28,390 nucleotides of DNA from positions 1 through 28,390 of the forward strand of contig CAZQEL010000010.1 of NCBI GenBank assembly GCA_964591795.1, read 5' to 3'. Every line of letters begins with the position of its first letter. Position 1 is the stretch's first letter. A program made the translations under genes and the position numbers. The notes under the pieces are model-generated. The model ran no database searches. It saw only the letters and a program-made list of their open reading frames with translations, and was not told the DNA's origin. Positions 10,063 through 27,713 of this stretch are shown in pieces. This stretch comes from an uncultured archaeon (GTDB taxonomy: Archaea > Iainarchaeota > Iainarchaeia > Iainarchaeales > CSSED10-239).

Positions 10063-12927
10063 ATGTACGATTATAAAGATTTTGAAAAAAAATGGCAAAC
10101 TAAGTGGCAAGAAGAAAAAGTTGGTGAGGCTAATTTAGATTCATCTAAACCAAAATTTTTTTTAATATGGGCATATTTAACTGTTTCTGGTTTTCATCAT
10201 GTAGGTCATATGAGAGGTTATTCTTATGCTGATGCTATTTGTAGATTTAAAAGAATGAATGGATTTAATGTACTTCTTTCAGCAGGAGGACATGCTTCTG
10301 GAAACGGAGCAGTTTCAAAATCCTTAAAAGTTAAACAAAAGGATATTGAAACAATTAATTATTATAAAGAAAAAGGATTAACTGATAGAGATTTAGAACA
10401 AATAGAAACTCCAGAAGGGTTTGTTAATTTCTTTTCTAAAATGTATGTAAGGGATTATAATTCTTATGGTTATTTAGGTGATTTTAGAAGATTTACAGTT
10501 ACAACAAACAAAGATTATCAAAAATTTATTGAATGGCAATTTAAAAAACTTAAAGAAAAAGATTTGTTAATTCAAAAGCCTTATTTTGCAACTGCCTGTG
10601 TTAATTGTGGTCCAGTTGCAGTAGATCCTTCTGAAATGGATTTATCAAAGGGTGGTAATGCTGAAAAACAAGAGTTTACAATTATTAAATTAAAATTTGA
10701 AAAAGAAAATCAATTTATTTTAGTTGCAACTTTAAGACCTGAAACAGTTTATGGTCAAACAAATATTTGGTTGTCAACAGATGAAGAATATGTTAAGATT
10801 AAGAAAGATAATGAAGTTTGGATTGCATCAATTGATTTTTATGAAAAAATAAAATATCAAATAGATGGATTATCTTTATTACCTGAAAAAATAAAAGGAG
10901 AAGCTATTTTAGGGAAATTTGTAACTCCTCCAATAATAAATAGAAAAATAATTATTTTACCATCCTCTTTTTGTGATCCAAAGATAGGCACAGGAATTGT
11001 AACTTCAGTTCCATCAGATGCACCTTCAGATTATATAGGGCTTTATGATCTTCAAAATTCAAAAGAGGTCTGTGAAAACTATTCTTTAGATTATAATTTT
11101 ATTAAAGATATTAAATTAATACCAATTATTAAATCAAAAGATTTTGGTGAATTTCCTGCAGTTGAAATTTGTAAAAAAATGAATATTACTTCTCAAAACA
11201 ATTCAGAAAAGCTTAAAGAAGCTAAAAAGGAAGTTTACAAAAAAGGATATCATACAGGAGTTATGATTGATACCTGTGAAGAATATTCTGGTCTTAAAGT
11301 AGAGGTTGCAAAGGATAAAATAAAACAAAGAATGATTGATGAGTCAATTGCATTTGTATTCTATGATCTATCAGAAGAAGTTATTTGTAGATGTGGCTCT
11401 CCTGTTGTAATAAAAAGAATAGATGATCAGTGGTTTGTTAAATATTCAGATAAAGATTTAACTGAAAAAACAATTAATTATGTAAAAAACATGTTGATCT
11501 TACCTGAGTCATTTAAGAAAAATTTACCTAATGTTTTAAATTGGTTTGATGATCGGGCTTGTGCTCGTCAAGGTACATGGCTTGGAACTAAACTTCCTTT
11601 TGATAAGAGTTATACAATTGAGCCTATTTCAGATAGTACTTTATATCCTATATACTATCTTGTTAGTATTTATGTTAATGAAGGAAAAATAAAATTAGAG
11701 CAATTAACAGAAGAATTTTTTGATTATGTTTTCTTAGGAAAAGGAAATCCTTTAGATATTTCAAAAAACAATTCTATGGATATTAATTTAATTGAAAAAA
11801 TTAGAAAAGATGTTTTATACTGGTATCCTTTAGATATAAATTTAGGTGGTAAAGAACATCAAACTGTTCATTTCCCAACATTTTTAATGAACCATATAGG
11901 AATATTAGAACCTAGCTTTTATCCAAAAGGAATTTTTGTAAATTGGTGGGTAACTGCAAGTGGTGGTAAAATATCTAAATCAAAAGGTGGAGCTTCAAGT
12001 ATTGGTTCTGAGGCTGATAAATATTCTATTGATGCAATTAGATTATTTTATGCAAACATTGCAAGTCCATTTATAGATATTACCTTTGAAAAAGATGATC
12101 TTAAGACTTATAAACAAAGACTTGAAAGAATTTTTGCATTTATTGAAAATACGATTAACTCTAATGATTTAGTTGAACAAGATAATAATGAACTTGATCG
12201 TTGGTTTGAATCTAAATTTAATTTAAGAATTGAAAATATTATTAAAAATATGGATAAAATTGAGTTTAAAGCAGCAACTGATGAGATTTATTTTAATTTA
12301 CATAATGATTTTTCTTGGTATCTTAGAAGAGGGGGTATAAATAAAGCTCTTGTTAATACTATTTTAAAAAAATGGATTTTAACAATGGGTCTTTTTACTC
12401 CACACATGGCTGAAGAATTAAATAGTTTAGTTGGAGTTATTTCTTTAGTAATTAAGCAAGATTTTCCTAAAGTTGATATTGAAAAAATAAATTTATCTTT
12501 AGATAATAAAGAAAAAGATGTTGAAAAGTTAATTTCAGATCTAAGAAATGTAATTAAACTTTCAGGACTTGAAAAACCAAGTAAAGTTACTTTATTTATT
12601 TCTCCTTCTTGGAAATATTTGTTTTATCAAGAAGTTATTTCTGATTTAGATACTACTCGTAATGTTGGACAATTAATATCTAAATATCTAGTTAAGTATT
12701 CTAAGAATAAAGAAGAAGTTTCAAAAACAATTATAAAACTTGTAAAACAACCACTTTTAAAAGAAACAATTAAGTCTCAAGAAAAAGATTTAATTTTCTT
12801 AAATTCTATTTTGAAATTTTTAGAAGAAAGTTTAGATGTTTCAGTTGAAATAATCAATGCAGACAATAGTGTTGTAGAAAAAGCAAAAAAGGCATCTCCA
12901 AATAAAATCGGATTTTTAGTTGAGTAG
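10063..12927 (+). CDS. leuS: leucyl-tRNA synthetase, archaeal/eukaryal type
   Basis: 954 aa. HIGH motif (FHHVGH), KMSKS motif (KISKSKGG), a CP1 editing domain region and a long archaeal-type C-terminal extension. Confidence 0.95.
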   Translation: MYDYKDFEKKWQTKWQEEKVGEANLDSSKPKFFLIWAYLTVSGFHHVGHMRGYSYADAICRFKRMNGFNVLLSAGGHASGNGAVSKSLKVKQKDIETINYYKEKGLTDRDLEQIETPEGFVNFFSKMYVRDYNSYGYLGDFRRFTVTTNKDYQKFIEWQFKKLKEKDLLIQKPYFATACVNCGPVAVDPSEMDLSKGGNAEKQEFTIIKLKFEKENQFILVATLRPETVYGQTNIWLSTDEEYVKIKKDNEVWIASIDFYEKIKYQIDGLSLLPEKIKGEAILGKFVTPPIINRKIIILPSSFCDPKIGTGIVTSVPSDAPSDYIGLYDLQNSKEVCENYSLDYNFIKDIKLIPIIKSKDFGEFPAVEICKKMNITSQNNSEKLKEAKKEVYKKGYHTGVMIDTCEEYSGLKVEVAKDKIKQRMIDESIAFVFYDLSEEVICRCGSPVVIKRIDDQWFVKYSDKDLTEKTINYVKNMLILPESFKKNLPNVLNWFDDRACARQGTWLGTKLPFDKSYTIEPISDSTLYPIYYLVSIYVNEGKIKLEQLTEEFFDYVFLGKGNPLDISKNNSMDINLIEKIRKDVLYWYPLDINLGGKEHQTVHFPTFLMNHIGILEPSFYPKGIFVNWWVTASGGKISKSKGGASSIGSEADKYSIDAIRLFYANIASPFIDITFEKDDLKTYKQRLERIFAFIENTINSNDLVEQDNNELDRWFESKFNLRIENIIKNMDKIEFKAATDEIYFNLHNDFSWYLRRGGINKALVNTILKKWILTMGLFTPHMAEELNSLVGVISLVIKQDFPKVDIEKINLSLDNKEKDVEKLISDLRNVIKLSGLEKPSKVTLFISPSWKYLFYQEVISDLDTTRNVGQLISKYLVKYSKNKEEVSKTIIKLVKQPLLKETIKSQEKDLIFLNSILKFLEESLDVSVEIINADNSVVEKAKKASPNKIGFLVE

Positions 12928-14321
12928 TGATTATTATTAATAGTAGTTTTTCTAAAGAATATTCTCAATTAATTAAAGAGTATACTTCAAATATAAATAT
13001 AGCTTATAATTTATCTAAAAAATATTATAAAGATATATATGTGTTTGATAATATTCCTTTAGTTGAATATTCATTAAAAATAGCAACTAAACTTGTTAAT
13101 TATGATGAGCATATTATTGTTTCTGCAATTCTTTATAATCCCTATAAATATGGTCTTGATCTTAAATTAAATGGATTTTTAAAAAATGTACGTAAAATAA
13201 CAAAAGATTATTATTTTCTTAATTTTTATGAAATATCTCATAATAAAAATATTGATTCTAAAACCATTAAAAATATGGTTGTTCAATCTTTTTTTAAAAT
13301 AGAATCAGTTATTTTGTTATTTGGAGAGGCGCTTGTTATTTATGATTATTTTCCAAAAATTAAGAATGATGCCTATAAAAAAAGATTTCTAGATATTTTA
13401 GAATTTACAATTTTACCTTTGACCTATCAATTAGGCATGACAAATTTTAAAGAAGAAATACTTGAAAAATTAACTTATTTAAAATATAAAAAAAAATATA
13501 AGTATATTTGTGATTATTTTAAAAAGAATTATCCTTCTAAAAATTTAAAAATTATTAAAGATATTATTATTGATTATTTAAAATCAAATAATCAAAAACC
13601 GAATAACTATTATTATAGATATAAAAGTCTAGGTAGTTTTTATCAAAAAATTTATGTTAAACAAGAAAAGCAAAATTTTGAAGATGTCTTAGATATATAT
13701 GCATTAAGGTTAATTTATGTAACAAAGAAAGAATGTTATGAAGTCTTAAATTTAATTAAAGATAATTTTGATGTTATTGAAAATAGTTCAACTAAAATAA
13801 GGGATTTTATAAAACATCCAAAAGAAAATGGATATAGTTCTATTCATTTAAATATAATTTTAAATGATTTTCCTGTAGAAATACAAATAAGAACAATTGA
13901 TATGCATAATAATGCTGAGTTTGGAGTTTCTGCTCATTTTCATTATAAAAATATTGAGTTTTCTGAAAAAGATAAACGTTTAGTTACTTTTTTAAAGAAA
14001 AAAACTTTGCTTGAAAAACCCAAAGATAAAACTTATAAGGATCATGTAATGGTTTATACTCAAACAGGTGAAAGCATATTAGTGCCTAAAAAATCAACTA
14101 TTTTTGATTTTGCATTTTATCTTCATTCTGATTTTGCAAAGTTTTATGATTATGCAATTATAAATAGAGAAATTGTTGTAGATAAGAACTATCTTTTAAA
14201 AAATGGAGATAAAATAAAGATTATAAGATCTAAAGAAATTACTTTGAAAAAAGAATTTTTAAATTTTATTTTTGTTAAAAAAAATAAGAAAAAATTTGCA
14301 CTTCTTTTAAAAAATATTTAA
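12927..14321 (+). CDS. RelA/SpoT homologue: degenerate HD domain + (p)ppGpp synthetase domain + TGS domain
   Basis: The GTG start overlaps the leuS TAG by 1 nt. Synthetase motifs are YRYKSLGSFYQKI, DIYALRLIY, KIRDFIKHPKENGYSSIH and EIQIRTIDMHNNAEFGVSAHFHYK (compare RelSeq GRPKHIYSIYRKM / DLIAIRCV / GYQSIH / [24 protein letters not shown]). TGS domain: VMVYTQTGESILVPKKSTIFDFAFYLHSDFAKF...NGDKIKII. In the N-terminal HD region the His-Asp pair is replaced (AILYNPYKYG where LHDVVEDT is expected). Confidence 0.8.
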   Translation: MIIINSSFSKEYSQLIKEYTSNINIAYNLSKKYYKDIYVFDNIPLVEYSLKIATKLVNYDEHIIVSAILYNPYKYGLDLKLNGFLKNVRKITKDYYFLNFYEISHNKNIDSKTIKNMVVQSFFKIESVILLFGEALVIYDYFPKIKNDAYKKRFLDILEFTILPLTYQLGMTNFKEEILEKLTYLKYKKKYKYICDYFKKNYPSKNLKIIKDIIIDYLKSNNQKPNNYYYRYKSLGSFYQKIYVKQEKQNFEDVLDIYALRLIYVTKKECYEVLNLIKDNFDVIENSSTKIRDFIKHPKENGYSSIHLNIILNDFPVEIQIRTIDMHNNAEFGVSAHFHYKNIEFSEKDKRLVTFLKKKTLLEKPKDKTYKDHVMVYTQTGESILVPKKSTIFDFAFYLHSDFAKFYDYAIINREIVVDKNYLLKNGDKIKIIRSKEITLKKEFLNFIFVKKNKKKFALLLKNI

Positions 14322-17297: not shown

Positions 17298-17373
17298 AAA
17301 AAAGTAGGAAAGCTTTTTTATAATAAGTAAGCAAGTTTATTATTTGTTTAAAAGAAAATGATTCTTAAATTTT
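17298..17373 (+). other. 5' arm of the pre-23S rRNA processing stem
   Basis: aaaaaagtaggaaa (17298-17311) is perfectly complementary to tttcctactttttt (20394-20407). Further complementary blocks (gctttttt/aaaagagc, taagcaa/ttgctta, tttgtttaaaag/ctttaaaacaaa, cttaaattt/aaatttaag) extend the helix to the mature ends. Confidence 0.75.
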
Positions 17374-20335
17374 AGCTAAACCAATTAGTGGATAACTTGG
17401 CTTGTGTACTGATGAAAGACGTGGCAAGCTGCGATAAGCTTGGGGTAGGTGCATGCAACCTTTGATCCCAAGATCTCTGAATTATTCACTTAACGAAAGT
17501 TAGGTGAAGGGAAAACCCAGGGAATTGAAGCATCTTAGTACCTGGAGGAAAAGAAAACAATAGTGATTCTGTGAATAGAGTTGATCGAAAGCAGAAGAGA
17601 ATAAACCGAATTTCCTATAGTAATGTGGGAGACATGTGGGGTGATGGCTCAGTTACTTCTTATATATTTAAATCGAGGCGTTCTGGAAAGAACTACCATA
17701 GAGGGTGATAGTCCCGTAGATATAAAATATCTGAGAAGATTGCTGATGTCCTAGAGTACTGCGCGTTGGATATCGCGTAGAAATACAGCTGGCATTTACA
17801 GCTAATTCTAAATATAACACAAGACCGATAGTGAACGAGTACTGCGAAGGAATGTTGAAAAGATCCCTTGACGGGGAGTTAAAAGCACTTGAAACTAATT
17901 GGTGACAGCGCGGGTATGGCTTAAAAGGAATGAGAGTAATTTATAAGTGATAAAAGGTAACTTTTAAAACGCGAATTACTTGAACAGGGTCATACTGTCC
18001 GTCACGAAGCACGGGCGAGGGAGTTAGTTTGTGTGGCAAGACAAAGCGATTAAGTCGTGGTGTCGTAGGGAAACCAATTTGCCGCAAAATTTTGAGGGCT
18101 AAGGTATTAACTGTGCCTTTAGTCACATAAACTAGACCCGAAACCAGGTGATCAACTCCTGAGCTTGATGAAGCCAATCAACTGATTGGTGGAGGTCATA
18201 AGCGCTACTAGTCTAACTGTTCGTGTGACTTGGGAGTGGGACTGATAAGGTTATCGAACCTGGTGATAGCGGGCTCCTACCGAAATAACTCTAAGGTTAG
18301 CATAGATGGAGAATAATAACGGGGTAGAGCTACTGATTAGAAAGTACTGGAGAGAAATTTCCACCTTTCTTGTTAAACTCCGAATCTGTTATTTTCGCAG
18401 AAGTCTAGAGTAGGGGACGGGGGGTAAGCCTCTGTTCCAAAAGGGAAAAAACCCAAACTATGATTAAGGCCCTTAAGTACAAACTAAGTGTAAATTCGAA
18501 AAGAGTAATTTCCCTAATACAATTGGGAGGTTGGCTTAGAAGCAGCCATCCTTTAAAGAGTGCGTAATAGCTCACCAATCTAGGATAGATGCCCTGAAAA
18601 TTAACTGGGCTAAATTGACCACCGATATCGTAGAGCACATACACATGTGATCTGGTAGGTAGGTGATTTGGTAGAGTAGAAGCTAGGCTGTGAAGTCTTG
18701 TGGATCTGCCAAATATATGGATCCTCGCGATAGTAACATCAAAGAAAAGTGAGAATCTTTTCCGTCGAAGGGGCAAGGGTTCCTTAGCACTAATTATTAG
18801 CTAAGGGTAAGTCGATCCTAAGTTATTTCGTAATTCGAAAATAACGAAAGGGAAACAGGTTCATATTCCTGTACTAAAAAAACACGTGTGGTAACGCAAG
18901 TATTATTTTTGACAGCTTTGGCAAGGTGGAGTGTGCTTATCTGCACATCTAAATATTATAAACCTTTGGAGAACTATAATAGTGAGAAGAAGGTTAAAGA
19001 TATGAATGGGAGAAATCTTCCATTAAGGCCAAGGTTCCGTGAAAAGAGAATAATTCAGTGTTTTTTTAATCGTACCAAGAACCGAGAAAGGTGTCCCTAG
19101 CTGAGTAGGCTAAGACGTAATAGGAGAATTAAGTTAAGGGAATTCGGCAATTTAGCCCTGTATCTTAGGTATAAGGGGTGCTTACGGTTGTGTAAACTGT
19201 AAGTCTTAGTCACAAGGACTGTCCGACTGTTTATCAAAAACACAGGTGACTGCTAGCCTGAAAAGGTGTGTATAGTCACTGACTTCTGCTCACTGCTAGT
19301 ACGTGAACGTCAGGTTCAACTGATCTAAGCGCTGGTAAAGAGCGGGCCTAACTCTGAGGCTCTCATGGTAGCGTAATACCTTGCCGATTAAATGTCGGCT
19401 TGCACCAAGGAAGTAACGAGATCGTCACTGTCCCTAACTTTAACTTAGTGAACTTGCTTAGCGTGGTGAATAAGCCACGGACAACCAATGGGAGGATAAG
19501 ACCCCACGGAGGTTTACCACAGTCTGGTGTTGTTGTATTATTTCTACTATAGAGCGTAGATGGGAGTCGCTTATGCTGTTTTCGCTAGGGAACAGATAGA
19601 CACCAATGTAACACCATCTAGTAGAAAAAATACGACTTACGTCTATTTGACGGACATCACTTGATCGGGTGGTTGGACTGGGGCGGTACGCCCCTGAAAA
19701 GATATCAGGGGCGTCCAAAGGTCTGCTCAGGCTGGTCAGAAATCAGCCGTAGAGGACAAGACCAAAAGCAGGCTTGACAATGTTCCTAAAAGCACGGAAC
19801 GTTGGAAGGAAACTTGGGTCTAGCGAACGCTAGTGTCCCTATTTATGGGGGCCTAGTCTGACAGTGAACTTACCCTGGGGGTAACTGGGTTGTCGCGGGT
19901 AAGAGTCCACATCGACCCCGCGGTTTGCTACCTCGCTGTCGGCTTACGGCATCCTGGCTGTGCACAAGCAGCCAAGGGTGGAGGTGTTCACTCATTAAAG
20001 CCGTACATTAGCTGGGTTAAGAACGTTGCGAGACAGTTTGGTTCCTATCTATTGGTTGTGTAGGTTGTTTGAAGGTAAGATCCGTTTAGTACGAGAGGAA
20101 CGATGGGTCGCAGTCTCTGGTGTGTGGGTTGTCTGACAAGGCATAGCCCAGTAGCTACGCTGTATTCGATAAGTACTGAAAGCATCTAAGTACGAAGCGA
20201 ACCCTAAAACGAGACAGCCATTCTTGCAGAAATGCGAGACGAGAACTCCGGAAGAAGACCGGTTTGATAGGTTAGAAGTATAAGACGCGAGCCTTCGGGC
20301 GAGTTTTTAAGCTTTCTAATACTAATGGTTCGAGT
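17374..20335 (+). rRNA. rrl: 23S (LSU) rRNA, archaeal type; ends approximate to about 10 nt
   Basis: 5' domain GATGAAAGACGTGGCAAGCTGCGATAAGC, GTPase-centre and sarcin-ricin (AGTACGAGAGGAAC, about 20089) regions, and peptidyl-transferase/A-loop sequences (GGTGTTCACTCATTAAAG, GACAGTTTGGTTCCTATC). Helix 1 pairing of ccaattagt (17381) with actaatgg (20321). At about 2.96 kb there is no sign of a large intron. Confidence 0.95.
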
Positions 20336-20407
20336 AAATTTAAGATTTCTTTAAAACAAATTTTAGTTTGCTTATAACATTTAAAAGAGCTATTTCCTAC
20401 TTTTTTT
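20336..20407 (+). other. 3' arm of the pre-23S rRNA processing stem
   Basis: Complementary to 17298-17373 (see the 5' arm). It is followed by a T10 run at 20415-20424 that could act as an archaeal oligo-T terminator. Confidence 0.75.
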
Positions 20408-24626: not shown

Positions 24627-24687
24627 GGCTCAGCCCGCCCATCTATCATCATATTTAAGTCAGCAGGTGTTCAATATCATCATTGCC
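24627..24687 (-). ncRNA. archaeal C/D box sRNA (dual guide)
   Basis: The minus strand reads GGCA-ATGATGA(C box, 24683-24677)-TATTGAACACCTG(13 nt)-CTGA(D', 24663-24660)-CTTAAAT-ATGATGA(C', 24652-24646)-TAGATGGGCGGG(12 nt)-CTGA(D, 24633-24630)-GCC. It has a GGC/GCC terminal stem, canonical box sequences and spacing, and is a GC-richer island in an AT-rich spacer. Confidence 0.85.
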
Positions 24688-24754: not shown

Positions 24755-25426
24755 ATGAACCTATCTTTGATTGCAGAACAGTTTGTGAAAGATATTAATT
24801 CAAAAAATATTGTAGCTATAGCTTCTTTTGATAATGATCTTGAACTAATTACTAAAATTATAGATTTTTCAAAAAAAGAAAATAAAGAACCTTTTTTTGT
24901 ACCAATAAATGTTAAACAATCAAAATTAATTCATTCGTTAAAGCAGAAAATAGTTTCTTTAAATGATAAAGAAATCGATGCTGCCATTGAAATTGCTAAT
25001 CAAGTGGATTATTATAATAATTTTGTAAAACTTAAAACAAATTCTTTTATAAGAGATAAAATGATATCTCAATCAGCTTTAAAGTTGTTTGTTATAGTTG
25101 ATTCTAAAAATTATGTTCCTGAAATAAATTCTGATGTTTGTGTTGAAATATCCACCTTTGCATGGCAGAGAACTATTATTCATCTTCAAAGTTTTGGTTT
25201 TGCTCAGGCAATTTATGATACAAAGTCTGAATTTATAAAAAGTGAAATAGGGCATTATCTAGTTAAAATTAAACTTGATAAAAACATAACTTTAGATGAT
25301 TTTGAGTATTCCATTAGAAATATTCCTGGTGTTTTAGAGTCAGGGGTTTTTTTAGGTCTTGCTGATTCTATATATATTTATGATTCTGAAAAAGATTCAC
25401 TTTCTGTTAGAAAAAGAGAAGATTAA
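24755..25426 (+). CDS. ribose-5-phosphate isomerase A-like protein with degenerate active-site motifs
   Basis: The C-terminus IRNIPGVLESGVFLGLADSIYIY matches the RpiA IPGVVEnGlF...a motif, and VIVDSKN and VCVEI blocks also align. GLGTGST is replaced by AIASFDN and the DGADE block by EIANQ. I chose the ATG at 24755 because the TTG at 24683 lies inside the C box of the C/D sRNA. Confidence 0.6.
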   Translation: MNLSLIAEQFVKDINSKNIVAIASFDNDLELITKIIDFSKKENKEPFFVPINVKQSKLIHSLKQKIVSLNDKEIDAAIEIANQVDYYNNFVKLKTNSFIRDKMISQSALKLFVIVDSKNYVPEINSDVCVEISTFAWQRTIIHLQSFGFAQAIYDTKSEFIKSEIGHYLVKIKLDKNITLDDFEYSIRNIPGVLESGVFLGLADSIYIYDSEKDSLSVRKRED

Positions 25427-25537: not shown

Positions 25538-25610
25538 GCCTCGGTGGCTTAGTGGTTAAAGCGCCAGACTCATAATCTGGAGACCGCCAGTCCAAATCTG
25601 GCTCGAGGCA
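25538..25610 (+). tRNA. tRNA with CAU anticodon (elongator Met or Ile2), no encoded CCA, unusual T-loop
   Basis: GCCTCGG-TG-GCTT-AGTGGTTA-AAGC-G-CCAGA-CTCATAA-TCTGG-AGACC-GCCAG-TCCAAAT-CTGGC-TCGAGGC-A forms a full cloverleaf with anticodon CAT at 25571-25573. It lacks the A1:U72 pair and the three G:C anticodon-stem pairs of archaeal initiators. A TATA-like tatataaa sits at 25512-25519, about 25 nt upstream. Confidence 0.85.
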
Positions 25611-26410
25611 CTTTTATTCTTTCTATTGAATCCTTTAAAGTATGGGTTTTAGAGCACGATTTCTGTAAACAGTATAAGAAAGATTTAATTAATAAAATAC
25701 CTGTTATTTTCCAAAAACATACGTATACTTTTATTGAGTTGTCAGAGTACATACTAAAGAACATAAACAAGATAAAAGAAAGAAGATACACTGTTATTCT
25801 TGTATCCTTACTATTGAAATACTTGCAAGAAAAACATAATGTATCTGAAACAGCTATCTTACCTATAAGGAAACTACTTACTTTTTCTAGTCCTTCAAAG
25901 CAAGACATATATGTTCCTACTGATTCTGAAGTACAATCTACACTTTCCAAATTATCAGCTACAAACCAATTAATGTACTTAGTGTACTTAGTGTCGGGTA
26001 TAAGGAAGGTAGAAGGAAATTATCTTTTAGAGAATATTCCTAATTTAAAATGTCAAAAGTTTGATGGGTTTGTTAAAATATCAATGAACTATTTAAGAAA
26101 GAATAAAAAATCTTACTTTGCTTACTTACCGTTAGATGTTTACAGTAAGTTGTTAGCAAACTACAAACAATTATCAGTAAGTTCATTAGAGAACGATATA
26201 AAAAAAAAGAAACTCATACCTATAAAATATTGTAGGAAGTGGTTCTATACTAAGTGCATTGAGTTAGGAATTCCAGAATCTATTGCTGATTATTATCAAG
26301 GAAGAATAGGTAATTCAGTAGGTAATAATCATTATTTAAGTAGACAAATGTTGGCGGATAAGAATTATGTTAAAATAGTTAGTTATTTTAATTGTTTTAT
26401 ACTTAAATAA
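25553..26410 (+). CDS. tyrosine recombinase, SSV-type integrase C-terminal fragment (Int(C)) reading out of the tRNA gene
   Basis: Catalytic-domain motifs are LVSGIRKVEG (box I Arg), YCRKWFYT (box II Arg) and GNNHYL (Tyr nucleophile). The frame is open from 25553, inside the tRNA, to 26410. My translation upstream of the TTG at 25739 gives 62 sense codons with no ATG and no stop; the first in-frame ATG is at codon ~80 of the listed ORF. Confidence 0.65.
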   Translation, partial: WLKRQTHNLETASPNLARGTFILSIESFKVWVLEHDFCKQYKKDLINKIPVIFQKHTYTFIELSEYILKNINKIKERRYTVILVSLLLKYLQEKHNVSETAILPIRKLLTFSSPSKQDIYVPTDSEVQSTLSKLSATNQLMYLVYLVSGIRKVEGNYLLENIPNLKCQKFDGFVKISMNYLRKNKKSYFAYLPLDVYSKLLANYKQLSVSSLENDIKKKKLIPIKYCRKWFYTKCIELGIPESIADYYQGRIGNSVGNNHYLSRQMLADKNYVKIVSYFNCFILK

Positions 26411-26444
26411 TATTTATTTAAATAAAAATTTAGATGTATTTATT

Positions 26445-27713
26445 ATGAATATAGATGATTTAAAAGGATTATTATTGTATTTTGGTTTTTCAATAGGTTT
26501 AGGTGTTGGTATAGTTAAAAGTAGTTGGGGTTGGTTTTTTTTTATATTTTTAGGACCTGTAATTTTATTTTATATTATTGAAAAAGTGGTGAAAAATTAT
26601 AATCAAAGTTTGTTAAAAATAAAAGAAGATAAAACTATAAATACTATTAAACGTGAACTTAAACAAATTAAGACTAAAATAACTAAATTTAAAAAATCTA
26701 AACATAATAACTTATTAAAAAAATTTGTAAAAAACTTAGATTATGAAATGTCTCAAGAACTAACTTGGTTAGCTTACAAAAATGCAATTTATAATGATGA
26801 TTATGAATTTTTGAAATTTAGAGAATTAATAAATTCTAATAAAAAAATAACTTTTTTTGGATTTGAAGAGGCATATAATAAATATTATGAAATAGCATAT
26901 GAATTCATATCATTAAAAGAAACCATAAAAGAAAATTATTCAGAACTAAATAAATTAGAAATAGAAAAATTATATATAGATGAAATAGAAAAATCAAATA
27001 TTTTTGATTATAATCCAAAATATTTTGATAAATTAAAAGATTTATTAAAATTTAAAGGATTTAAATTTACAGAAGGAGAATTAGTTTATTTAATAATCTT
27101 AGAAAAAGGTGTATTTGCTAATACTAATTTTAATAAATATCTCTCTAAAAATGCAAATACTTTAGACGGATACATTTTAAATTTTATAAGTTATAATTAT
27201 GAATATGATAATGTAGATATAGAAAAATTAATTTTATTTTTAAAGAAAAATAAAATTACAATAAAAAAGGAAGAATTAATAGAAAAAATTGAAAATATAA
27301 GAGAGAAACAAGAATTAAAAAATTTTGAAAATAAAATAAATGAATCTAATTTCATAAATATTTCAGATATAGATAAAATGTCAGGATATGATTTTGAATC
27401 TTTTTTAGTTAAATTATATAAAAAAATGGGTTATTCTGTTCAACAAACACCTTTATCTAATGATCAAGGCGGAGATTTAGTTGTTGAAAAATTAGGTGTT
27501 AGATATGTTGTTCAAGCAAAAAGATATAATACTTCTATTAGTAATTCTGCAGTTCAGCAAGTTGTTGCTTCAATAAAATACTATAATGCAGATAAAGGAA
27601 TATTAATTACAAATTCAATATTTACAAAATCTTCGATTAATCTTGCAGATTCAAATAAAATTGAATTAATAGATAGAGATGAATTAAAATATTTGATTAG
27701 AAAATATTTTTAA
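26445..27713 (+). CDS. membrane-anchored Mrr-like (PD-(D/E)xK) restriction endonuclease domain protein
   Basis: 422 aa. Two N-terminal TM helices, a long Lys/Glu-rich helical middle region, and a C-terminal Mrr_cat pattern MSGYDFESFLVKLYKKMGYSV...NDQGGDLVVEK...VVQAKRY...AVQQVVASIKYYNADKGILITNSIFTKSS. Confidence 0.7.
   Translation: MNIDDLKGLLLYFGFSIGLGVGIVKSSWGWFFFIFLGPVILFYIIEKVVKNYNQSLLKIKEDKTINTIKRELKQIKTKITKFKKSKHNNLLKKFVKNLDYEMSQELTWLAYKNAIYNDDYEFLKFRELINSNKKITFFGFEEAYNKYYEIAYEFISLKETIKENYSELNKLEIEKLYIDEIEKSNIFDYNPKYFDKLKDLLKFKGFKFTEGELVYLIILEKGVFANTNFNKYLSKNANTLDGYILNFISYNYEYDNVDIEKLILFLKKNKITIKKEELIEKIENIREKQELKNFENKINESNFINISDIDKMSGYDFESFLVKLYKKMGYSVQQTPLSNDQGGDLVVEKLGVRYVVQAKRYNTSISNSAVQQVVASIKYYNADKGILITNSIFTKSSINLADSNKIELIDRDELKYLIRKYF

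Follow-up and report, generated by a model that had tools for sequence, protein, structure and literature searches.

The 28,390-bp stretch analysed here (contig CAZQEL010000010.1 of an uncultured archaeon of the Diapherotrites/Iainarchaeota lineage; hereafter the window) almost certainly carries a real and conserved dual-guide archaeal box C/D small RNA (sRNA) gene on its minus strand, directly upstream of the ribose-5-phosphate isomerase A gene rpiA. Our overall explanation, which we consider likely, is that of an independently transcribed C/D sRNA gene whose D′ guide would act on U19985 of the organism's own 23S rRNA and whose D guide would most likely act on the equivalent of C1402 in 16S rRNA (E. 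coli numbering). Read from position 24687 to 24627, the gene has the dual-guide C/D box architecture within 61 nt from stem arm to stem arm, in the order GGC-A-AUGAUGA-UAUUGAACACCUG-CUGA-CUUAAAU-AUGAUGA-UAGAUGGGCGGG-CUGA-GCC (Table 1). It thus has the hallmarks of the archaeal class, namely C and D boxes at the ends, internal D′ and C′ boxes and a terminal stem. Its spacers, set against a norm of ~12 nt (typically 10–13 nt), measure 12 nt for the D guide and 13 nt for the D′ guide, the latter slightly above canonical. Complementarity to rRNA or tRNA under the N+5 rule, in which the nucleotide opposite the fifth guide position upstream of box D′ or D is the one modified, was found for the D′ guide on the organism's own 23S rRNA.

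Architecture, conservation and predicted transcription of the sRNA gene

The anatomy had first been read from the letters alone, and every element that this original prediction placed on the minus strand was found where it had been put. The full C/guide/D′/linker/C′/guide/D regular expression matches once on both strands of the window, which has a G+C content of 25%, and the same pattern occurs in none of 2000 dinucleotide-preserving shuffles. At the gathering threshold Rfam reports only a full-length archaeal 23S rRNA and two tRNAs in the window. Under permissive settings the only models aligned from end to end over 24627/8–24687 (minus strand) are archaeal C/D families, all of them below threshold: sR1 (RF01152) with 28.5 bits (E = 3e-5) and snoPyro_CD (RF00095) with 25.5 bits, each against a gathering score of 45, followed by sR2, sR17, sR44 and sR3, the gathering scores of all these families being 36–45 bits. 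The sRNA would therefore be missed by a standard annotation pipeline. The families sR1 and snoPyro_CD are defined by their own guide sequences, which is why it scores below their thresholds; it is not a member of these sequence families and shares only their structural class.

The related genomes, in which conservation of boxes and guides had been proposed as a check, retain both. A pattern scan of one genome per species (185,579 species) with relaxed guides, fixing only the boxes, GAACA at D′ guide positions 5–9 and GGGCGG at D guide positions 2–7, returned 16 genomes, all with the same dual guide. All are DPANN-type archaeal metagenome-assembled genomes or Forterrea; they are named Ca. Iainarchaeum, ‘ainarchaeum’ or ‘archaeon’, plus the complete Ca. 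Forterrea multitransposorum (CP045477.1), which is a Diapherotrite (PMC5905446). Loci were also retrieved via RpiA homologues of 50–71% identity; their contigs belong to DPANN-type archaea and share the gene order of the window, down to the unlinked 23S gene nearby. Each syntenic locus has the sRNA immediately upstream of rpiA, encoded on the other strand. Across 20 aligned sRNA copies the C, D and D′ boxes are invariant, as is UGAUGA of the C′ box, whose first base is A or G in relatives. The D′ core GAACACCUG is likewise invariant, preceded by U in 19 of the 20 copies, and the D core AUGGGCGGG is the same in all homologues. Conservation thus covers the box-proximal 9–10 nt of both guides, while the 3–5 nt at the 5′ end of the spacers vary freely, with spacer lengths in relatives of 12–13 nt (D) and 13–15 nt (D′). 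The D′–C′ linker is free in sequence and 3–9 nt long among homologues, the boxes on either side being fixed.

The terminal stem has changed on both sides at once. Its variants include GGC/GCC (window), UAGC/GCUA, UACAC/GUGUA and AGACA/UGUCU, the last of which is lengthened to 7–13 bp in some copies. All 20 homologues keep the three inner pairs, each of which has two to three pair types with all changes double-sided; the covariation score is 0.762 versus 0.232 ± 0.041 in shuffles (0/500 as high) and at most 0.156 in slid-register controls. Upstream of the stem, nearly all of 24 copies have a TTTWWAWA-type octamer (TTTTAAAA, TTTATATA, TTTAAATA or TTTATAAA) at a distance of 15–24 nt, mostly 20–23 nt, although the surrounding spacer has diverged, and T-runs follow the 3′ arm of the stem in most copies. 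This is the arrangement expected of an independent archaeal transcription unit, and the octamer is a putative promoter element. Anatomy, deep conservation, stem covariation and the conserved promoter-like element all agree, and at the level of sequence they support the assignment to the dual-guide C/D class.

The sRNA sits in a 150-nt spacer, where it is convergent with a 65-amino-acid open reading frame (ORF) and divergent from rpiA without overlapping either. The TTG start at 24683 given for the rpiA frame, which the original prediction had doubted, is wrong: RpiA homologues of 220–227 amino acids all align from ATG 24755, which is M25 of the 247-amino-acid ORF, and none of them has anything that matches the 24 extra codons of the TTG start. 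With the start at ATG 24755, rpiA and the sRNA do not overlap and are separated by 67 nt. The long rpiA ORF (TTG 24683; database gene call of 242 amino acids) over-extends by 19–24 codons into the sRNA promoter region.

Table 1. Positions of the sRNA gene, its parts, its 23S substrate and the adjoining rpiA gene in the window
Feature	Position	Strand	Basis or remark
C/D box sRNA gene	24627..24687	−	Direct reading; unique pattern; sub-threshold Rfam matches; syntenic homologues in 16 species-representative genomes and in metagenome contigs
Terminal stem 5′ arm GGC	24685..24687	−	Pairs with 24627–24629; covariation
Unpaired A between stem 5′ arm and C box	24684	−	Direct reading
C box AUGAUGA	24677..24683	−	Invariant in 20 aligned homologues
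D′ guide, 13 nt, TATTGAACACCTG (DNA), UAUUGAACACCUG (RNA)	24664..24676	−	Positions 2–10 pair with 23S 19982–19990
D′ box CUGA	24660..24663	−	Invariant
D′–C′ linker, 7 nt, CTTAAAT (DNA), CUUAAAU (RNA); loop of predicted internal k-loop	24653..24659	−	Free drift in homologues
C′ box AUGAUGA	24646..24652	−	UGAUGA invariant; RUGAUGA in relatives
D guide, 12 nt, TAGATGGGCGGG (DNA), UAGAUGGGCGGG (RNA)	24634..24645	−	Probable target 16S CCGCCCGUC
D box CUGA	24630..24633	−	Invariant
Terminal stem 3′ arm GCC	24627..24629	−	Covaries with 5′ arm
TATA-like box TTTTAAAA	24711..24718	−	23 nt upstream of first stem nucleotide; putative archaeal promoter
rpiA (ribose-5-phosphate isomerase A)	24755..25426	+	Pfam PF06026; corrected start ATG 24755
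23S rRNA gene, substrate RNA	17363..20345	+	Rfam RF02540, 2466 bits, full length
23S target of D′ guide, AGGUGUUCA, helix 92/A-loop	19982..19990	+	Complementarity; predicted 2′-O-methylation at U19985

Predicted targets of the two guides

Positions 2–10 of the D′ guide (UCCACAAGU, 3′ to 5′, counted from box D′) form nine contiguous Watson–Crick pairs with 23S positions 19982–19990, a site that ranks first for this guide in the whole 23S rRNA by complementarity as well as by duplex energy (−14.1 kcal/mol; next −12.3 kcal/mol), and its N+5 nucleotide is U19985. In the Rfam LSU_rRNA_archaea alignment UGUUC (19985–19989) is the loop of a hairpin with the consensus cgGGc-UGUUC-gCCcg, that is, of helix 92 with the A-loop. 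U19985 is therefore the first loop nucleotide and the equivalent of E. coli U2552, so that the pairing and the site named in the original prediction both hold. In this lineage the hairpin (19981–19994) reads GGAGG-UGUUC-ACUCA, with a G·A loop-closing pair in place of the archaeal consensus C–G, flagged as non-canonical in the Rfam alignment. The helix-92 sequence is identical in the relatives whose 23S rRNA was examined (loci L001, L003, L004, L006, L012 and L023). At position 4 the D′ guide has a C, which pairs with G19984; this G is specific to the lineage, and the C of the archaeal consensus at that place could form no such pair. The guide thus fits the A-loop of this lineage and not merely a generic one. 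Because the site is the best in the organism's own 23S rRNA and because guide and target are invariant across the lineage, the D′ guide very probably targets the U2552 equivalent. The 23S gene itself is solitary, with no 16S or 5S rRNA in the 28-kb window nor adjoining the 23S gene in relatives, and the rRNA genes are therefore unlinked in this lineage.

The complement of the D guide is CCCGCCCAUCUA, the very sequence that had been proposed as its perfect target. With the universal 16S sequence ACACACCGCCCGUCAA the guide forms a duplex of −19.9 kcal/mol in which positions 2–10 are paired and position 5 lies opposite C1402. The site CCGCCCGUC is identical in E. coli and in seven archaea, one of them the DPANN archaeon N. 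equitans (supplement of PMC4644070). The best 23S site for the D guide has −15.0 kcal/mol and three G·U pairs, one of them at the target position, and no convincing site was found in 23S rRNA or in the four tRNA types examined (Met, Glu, Val, Thr). Two candidates were rejected: tRNA-Met, owing to an internal mismatch and to a segment that varies among relatives while the guide is fixed, and the 3′ strand of helix 92 in the organism's own 23S rRNA, as weak. Apart from its occurrence antisense to the sRNA gene and one isolated CCGCCCAT in locus L007, the pattern CCGCCC[AG][UC] is absent from the window and from the 267 kb of relatives' loci. No small-subunit rRNA was found in the 23 relatives' loci; the Rfam scan covered those other than L001–L007, and L001–L007 were judged by their lack of a D-guide target. 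The D guide probably targets the 16S C1402 equivalent, an assignment that rests on the universal 16S sequence and not on the lineage's own. Of the originally predicted fit, the N+5 placement on C1402 of universal 16S stands, with 8–9 bp including one G·U; its full length gives way to 8 bp in one clade.

A number of points weigh against the explanation as a whole. The sRNA lies below the gathering score of every Rfam C/D family, and its D′ spacer is 13–15 nt long in this lineage versus a canonical 12 nt. The 16S duplex needs a G·U pair at G1405 (U in the guide) and leaves position 1 mismatched, and in the clade with the AGACA/UGUCU stem position 10 of the D guide is A, which shortens the duplex to 8 bp and −16.2 kcal/mol; that the 16S sequence used is the universal one counts on the same side. 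Finally, the proteins fibrillarin, Nop5 and L7Ae were not located for the lineage, and their presence is assumed from their near-universality in archaea. A tblastn search with the M. jannaschii fibrillarin (identical to PDB 1FBN) gave no match in the window and relatives' loci, and the best 120 matches of a protein-database search were mostly from Methanococcales with none from the lineage, a result that is uninformative on the lineage. Fibrillarin is present in >90% of archaeal taxa, and fibrillarin and Nop5 are among the archaeal single-copy marker genes (PMC8481954, PMC9258230).

If the sRNA is genuine and its D′ guide acts on the U2552 equivalent, the D guide could still act elsewhere, on another tRNA, another 16S site or another non-coding RNA with CCCGCCCAU, or could lack a methylation target and serve only as a structural or chaperone arm; we think this unlikely, while giving it some weight. 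A target with CCCGCCCAU would match the core AUGGGCGGG at every position, 1 and 8 among them, whereas with 16S rRNA position 1 is mismatched and position 8 forms the wobble, and position 8 of the D guide is never C in the 16 species. The RNAs scanned covered the four tRNA species besides 23S rRNA, with 16S, 5S, RNase P and SRP RNA outside the scan, and guides with no predicted target are common in archaea (the supplement of PMC4644070 has frequent ‘NP’ entries). However, position 1 is an invariant unpaired G in the D′ guide too, so its conservation is no evidence of pairing, and the 16S site, which is conserved universally, is known to be ribose-methylated in Bacteria and Eukarya and has been predicted as a guide target in Pyrobaculum and Thermoproteus. 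The segment of the syntenic tRNA-Met that weakly resembles the D target varies among relatives, whereas the D guide does not. It is very improbable that the D guide instead acts on helix 92 of 23S rRNA, at C19991 of the window (equivalent to E. coli C2558) in the 3′ strand, next to the D′ target, so that both guides would share one hairpin. The canonical archaeal strand UUCGCCCAU would give seven Watson–Crick and two G·U pairs with the D guide (−15.3 kcal/mol), GCCCGCCCAUUAAAG stands at this position in the 23S rRNA of Pyrobaculum and Thermoproteus, and one report (PMC7994747) describes the paired guides of archaeal sRNAs as often targeting neighbouring rRNA sites. Yet in this lineage the strand is UUCACUCAU; the target nucleotide is then flanked by a mismatch (guide position 4) and a G·U pair (position 6), and the duplex has only −6.9 kcal/mol. 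This 23S sequence is invariant in all relatives examined, and the D and D′ footprints on helix 92 overlap, so that both guides could not bind one rRNA molecule at once. The likeness of the D-guide complement CCCGCCCAU to the canonical strand UUCGCCCAU, and its match to GCCCGCCCAUUAAAG of Pyrobaculum and Thermoproteus 23S rRNA, may have arisen by chance or be the remnant of a former target.

That the motif is not an RNA gene at all, but an accidental arrangement or a regulatory element (DNA-level or antisense) upstream of rpiA, is hardly credible to us. It does lie within the 150-nt spacer upstream of rpiA and overlaps the longest possible rpiA ORF, and its predicted single-sequence fold is no more stable than that of shuffled sequence (z = −0.23). 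This z-score is uninformative, however, because no stable fold beyond the short stem is expected of C/D sRNAs. The true rpiA start is 67 nt away, shuffling did not reproduce the C/D pattern, the G+C-rich guide cores are perfectly kept beside a diverged spacer, in a genome with 25% G+C, and the compensatory changes in the terminal stem read as an RNA-level signal.

Proposed mechanism and relation to known guides

The anatomy, its conservation and covariation, the promoter-like element and the complementary stretch in the organism's own 23S rRNA are observed, whereas expression, assembly of a ribonucleoprotein (RNP), methylation and the 16S target are inferred. The locus would be transcribed independently as a box C/D sRNA which, by analogy with characterised archaeal C/D RNPs, would form an internal C′/D′ k-loop and a terminal C/D kink-turn that the covarying stem closes. 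Each motif would be bound by L7Ae, and Nop5–fibrillarin would be recruited. Each spacer would pair with rRNA over approximately guide positions 2–10, and fibrillarin would 2′-O-methylate the N+5 nucleotide. The D′ guide would thereby direct methylation of 23S U19985, in E. coli Um2552, and the D guide, most likely, that of the decoding-centre nucleotide equivalent to 16S C1402. The architecture is that of a standard archaeal C/D sRNA, and the L7Ae/Nop5/fibrillarin mechanism that we infer is the standard textbook one. A second C/D sRNA was not found with a relaxed regular expression in the window and 267 kb of relatives' loci.

The RNA resembles the archaeal C/D class as known from Sulfolobus sR1–sR29 and Pyrococcus sR1–sR46 in its size of ~60 nt, its RUGAUGA and CUGA boxes with internal C′/D′, its two spacers of ~12 nt, its short terminal stem and its N+5 rRNA complementarity. 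It departs from the class in its D′ spacers of 13–15 nt and in its host, a mesophilic DPANN archaeon with a reduced genome of 25% G+C. No report of C/D sRNAs in Diapherotrites/Iainarchaeota turned up in the literature searches made, which does not establish their absence from the whole literature.

Guide-directed methylation of the U2552 equivalent has been predicted for P. abyssi sR25 and for sRNAs of five among seven archaea surveyed (Dennis et al. 2015), and yeast has snR52 (Um2921), whereas halophiles have an RlmE homologue at the U2552 equivalent and Methanococcus probably has an RlmE-type protein or no guide (PMC4644070, PMC2584109). An RNA guide in place of FtsJ at U2552, as suggested in the original prediction, is thus an idea already in the literature and not new. 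The D′ guide shares with P. abyssi sR25 and yeast snR52 the target nucleotide, the first of the helix-92 loop, and with it a predicted RNA-guided route to the near-universal Um2552. It differs from them in being adapted to the helix 92 of its lineage (AGGUGUUCA versus the consensus GGCUGUUCG) and in sharing its RNA with a small-subunit guide.

The C1402 equivalent is m4Cm in E. coli and Cm1638 (Cm1638/1639) in yeast 18S rRNA (PMC2584109, Table 4). It is also the predicted target ‘16S C1389*’ of P. calidifontis sR25 and T. tenax sR35 (PMC4644070), alignment position 1389 plus 13 being E. coli 1402. These two guides would share with our D guide the same predicted nucleotide, in the P-site part of the decoding centre, and their predictions are asterisked; here, in contrast, the assignment comes from universal 16S and the duplex has the U·G1405 wobble. 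The D′ guide of M. kandleri sR114, GUGAUGGGCGGA, has a nine-nucleotide core, GAUGGGCGG, identical to that of our D guide including the U opposite G1405 (supplement of PMC4644070), and would pair with 16S positions 1399–1409. Dennis et al. list no target for it (PMC4644070). M. kandleri sR114 differs in its degenerate boxes and in its other guide, which targets 16S rRNA near position 900.

What is new here is the lineage, Diapherotrites/Iainarchaeota, the presence of large- and small-subunit active-centre guides on one RNA and the depth of comparative support. The analysis adds a well-supported non-coding RNA gene to genomes annotated mostly as hypothetical proteins and corrects the start of rpiA. 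It also extends the comparison of C/D guides in DPANN archaea beyond Nanoarchaeum to a mesophilic lineage, with a guide that tracks a lineage-specific change in the A-loop helix. A bolder proposal, which we offer tentatively and hold to be doubtful, is that in these reduced genomes a single deeply conserved sRNA couples two ribose methylations shared across domains and located in active centres of the ribosome, A-loop Um2552 in the large subunit and P-site Cm1402 in the small one, does the work of the stand-alone bacterial enzymes RlmE and RsmI and may be one of very few guides retained, making up a near-minimal core of RNA-guided rRNA methylation. Should the 16S target and the absence of RlmE/RsmI-type enzymes prove true, the system would illustrate ribose methylations being kept as genome and sRNA repertoire shrink, and would bear on which rRNA modifications are indispensable.

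Other features of the window

The tRNA-Met gene (CAU anticodon, 25538–25611) has a T-loop of the form UCCAAAU or UCCGAAU with C55, which is also found in loci L004, L006, L008, L010, L014 and L017–L022, while L001, L003, L009, L012 and L013 have the usual UUCAAAU; U55 is near-universal in tRNA. Directly after this gene, at 25739–27713, lie an archaeal-type integrase (PF16795) and an Mrr-like restriction endonuclease. Because relatives carry genes for PAP2 and a Na+/H+ exchanger at this position, the arrangement suggests an integrated element at the tRNA-Met gene in this genome. Further upstream, at 12927–14321 and directly after the gene for leucyl-tRNA synthetase, an ORF combines RelA/SpoT (PF04607) and TGS domains; to our knowledge alarmone-synthetase-like proteins are uncommon in archaea.

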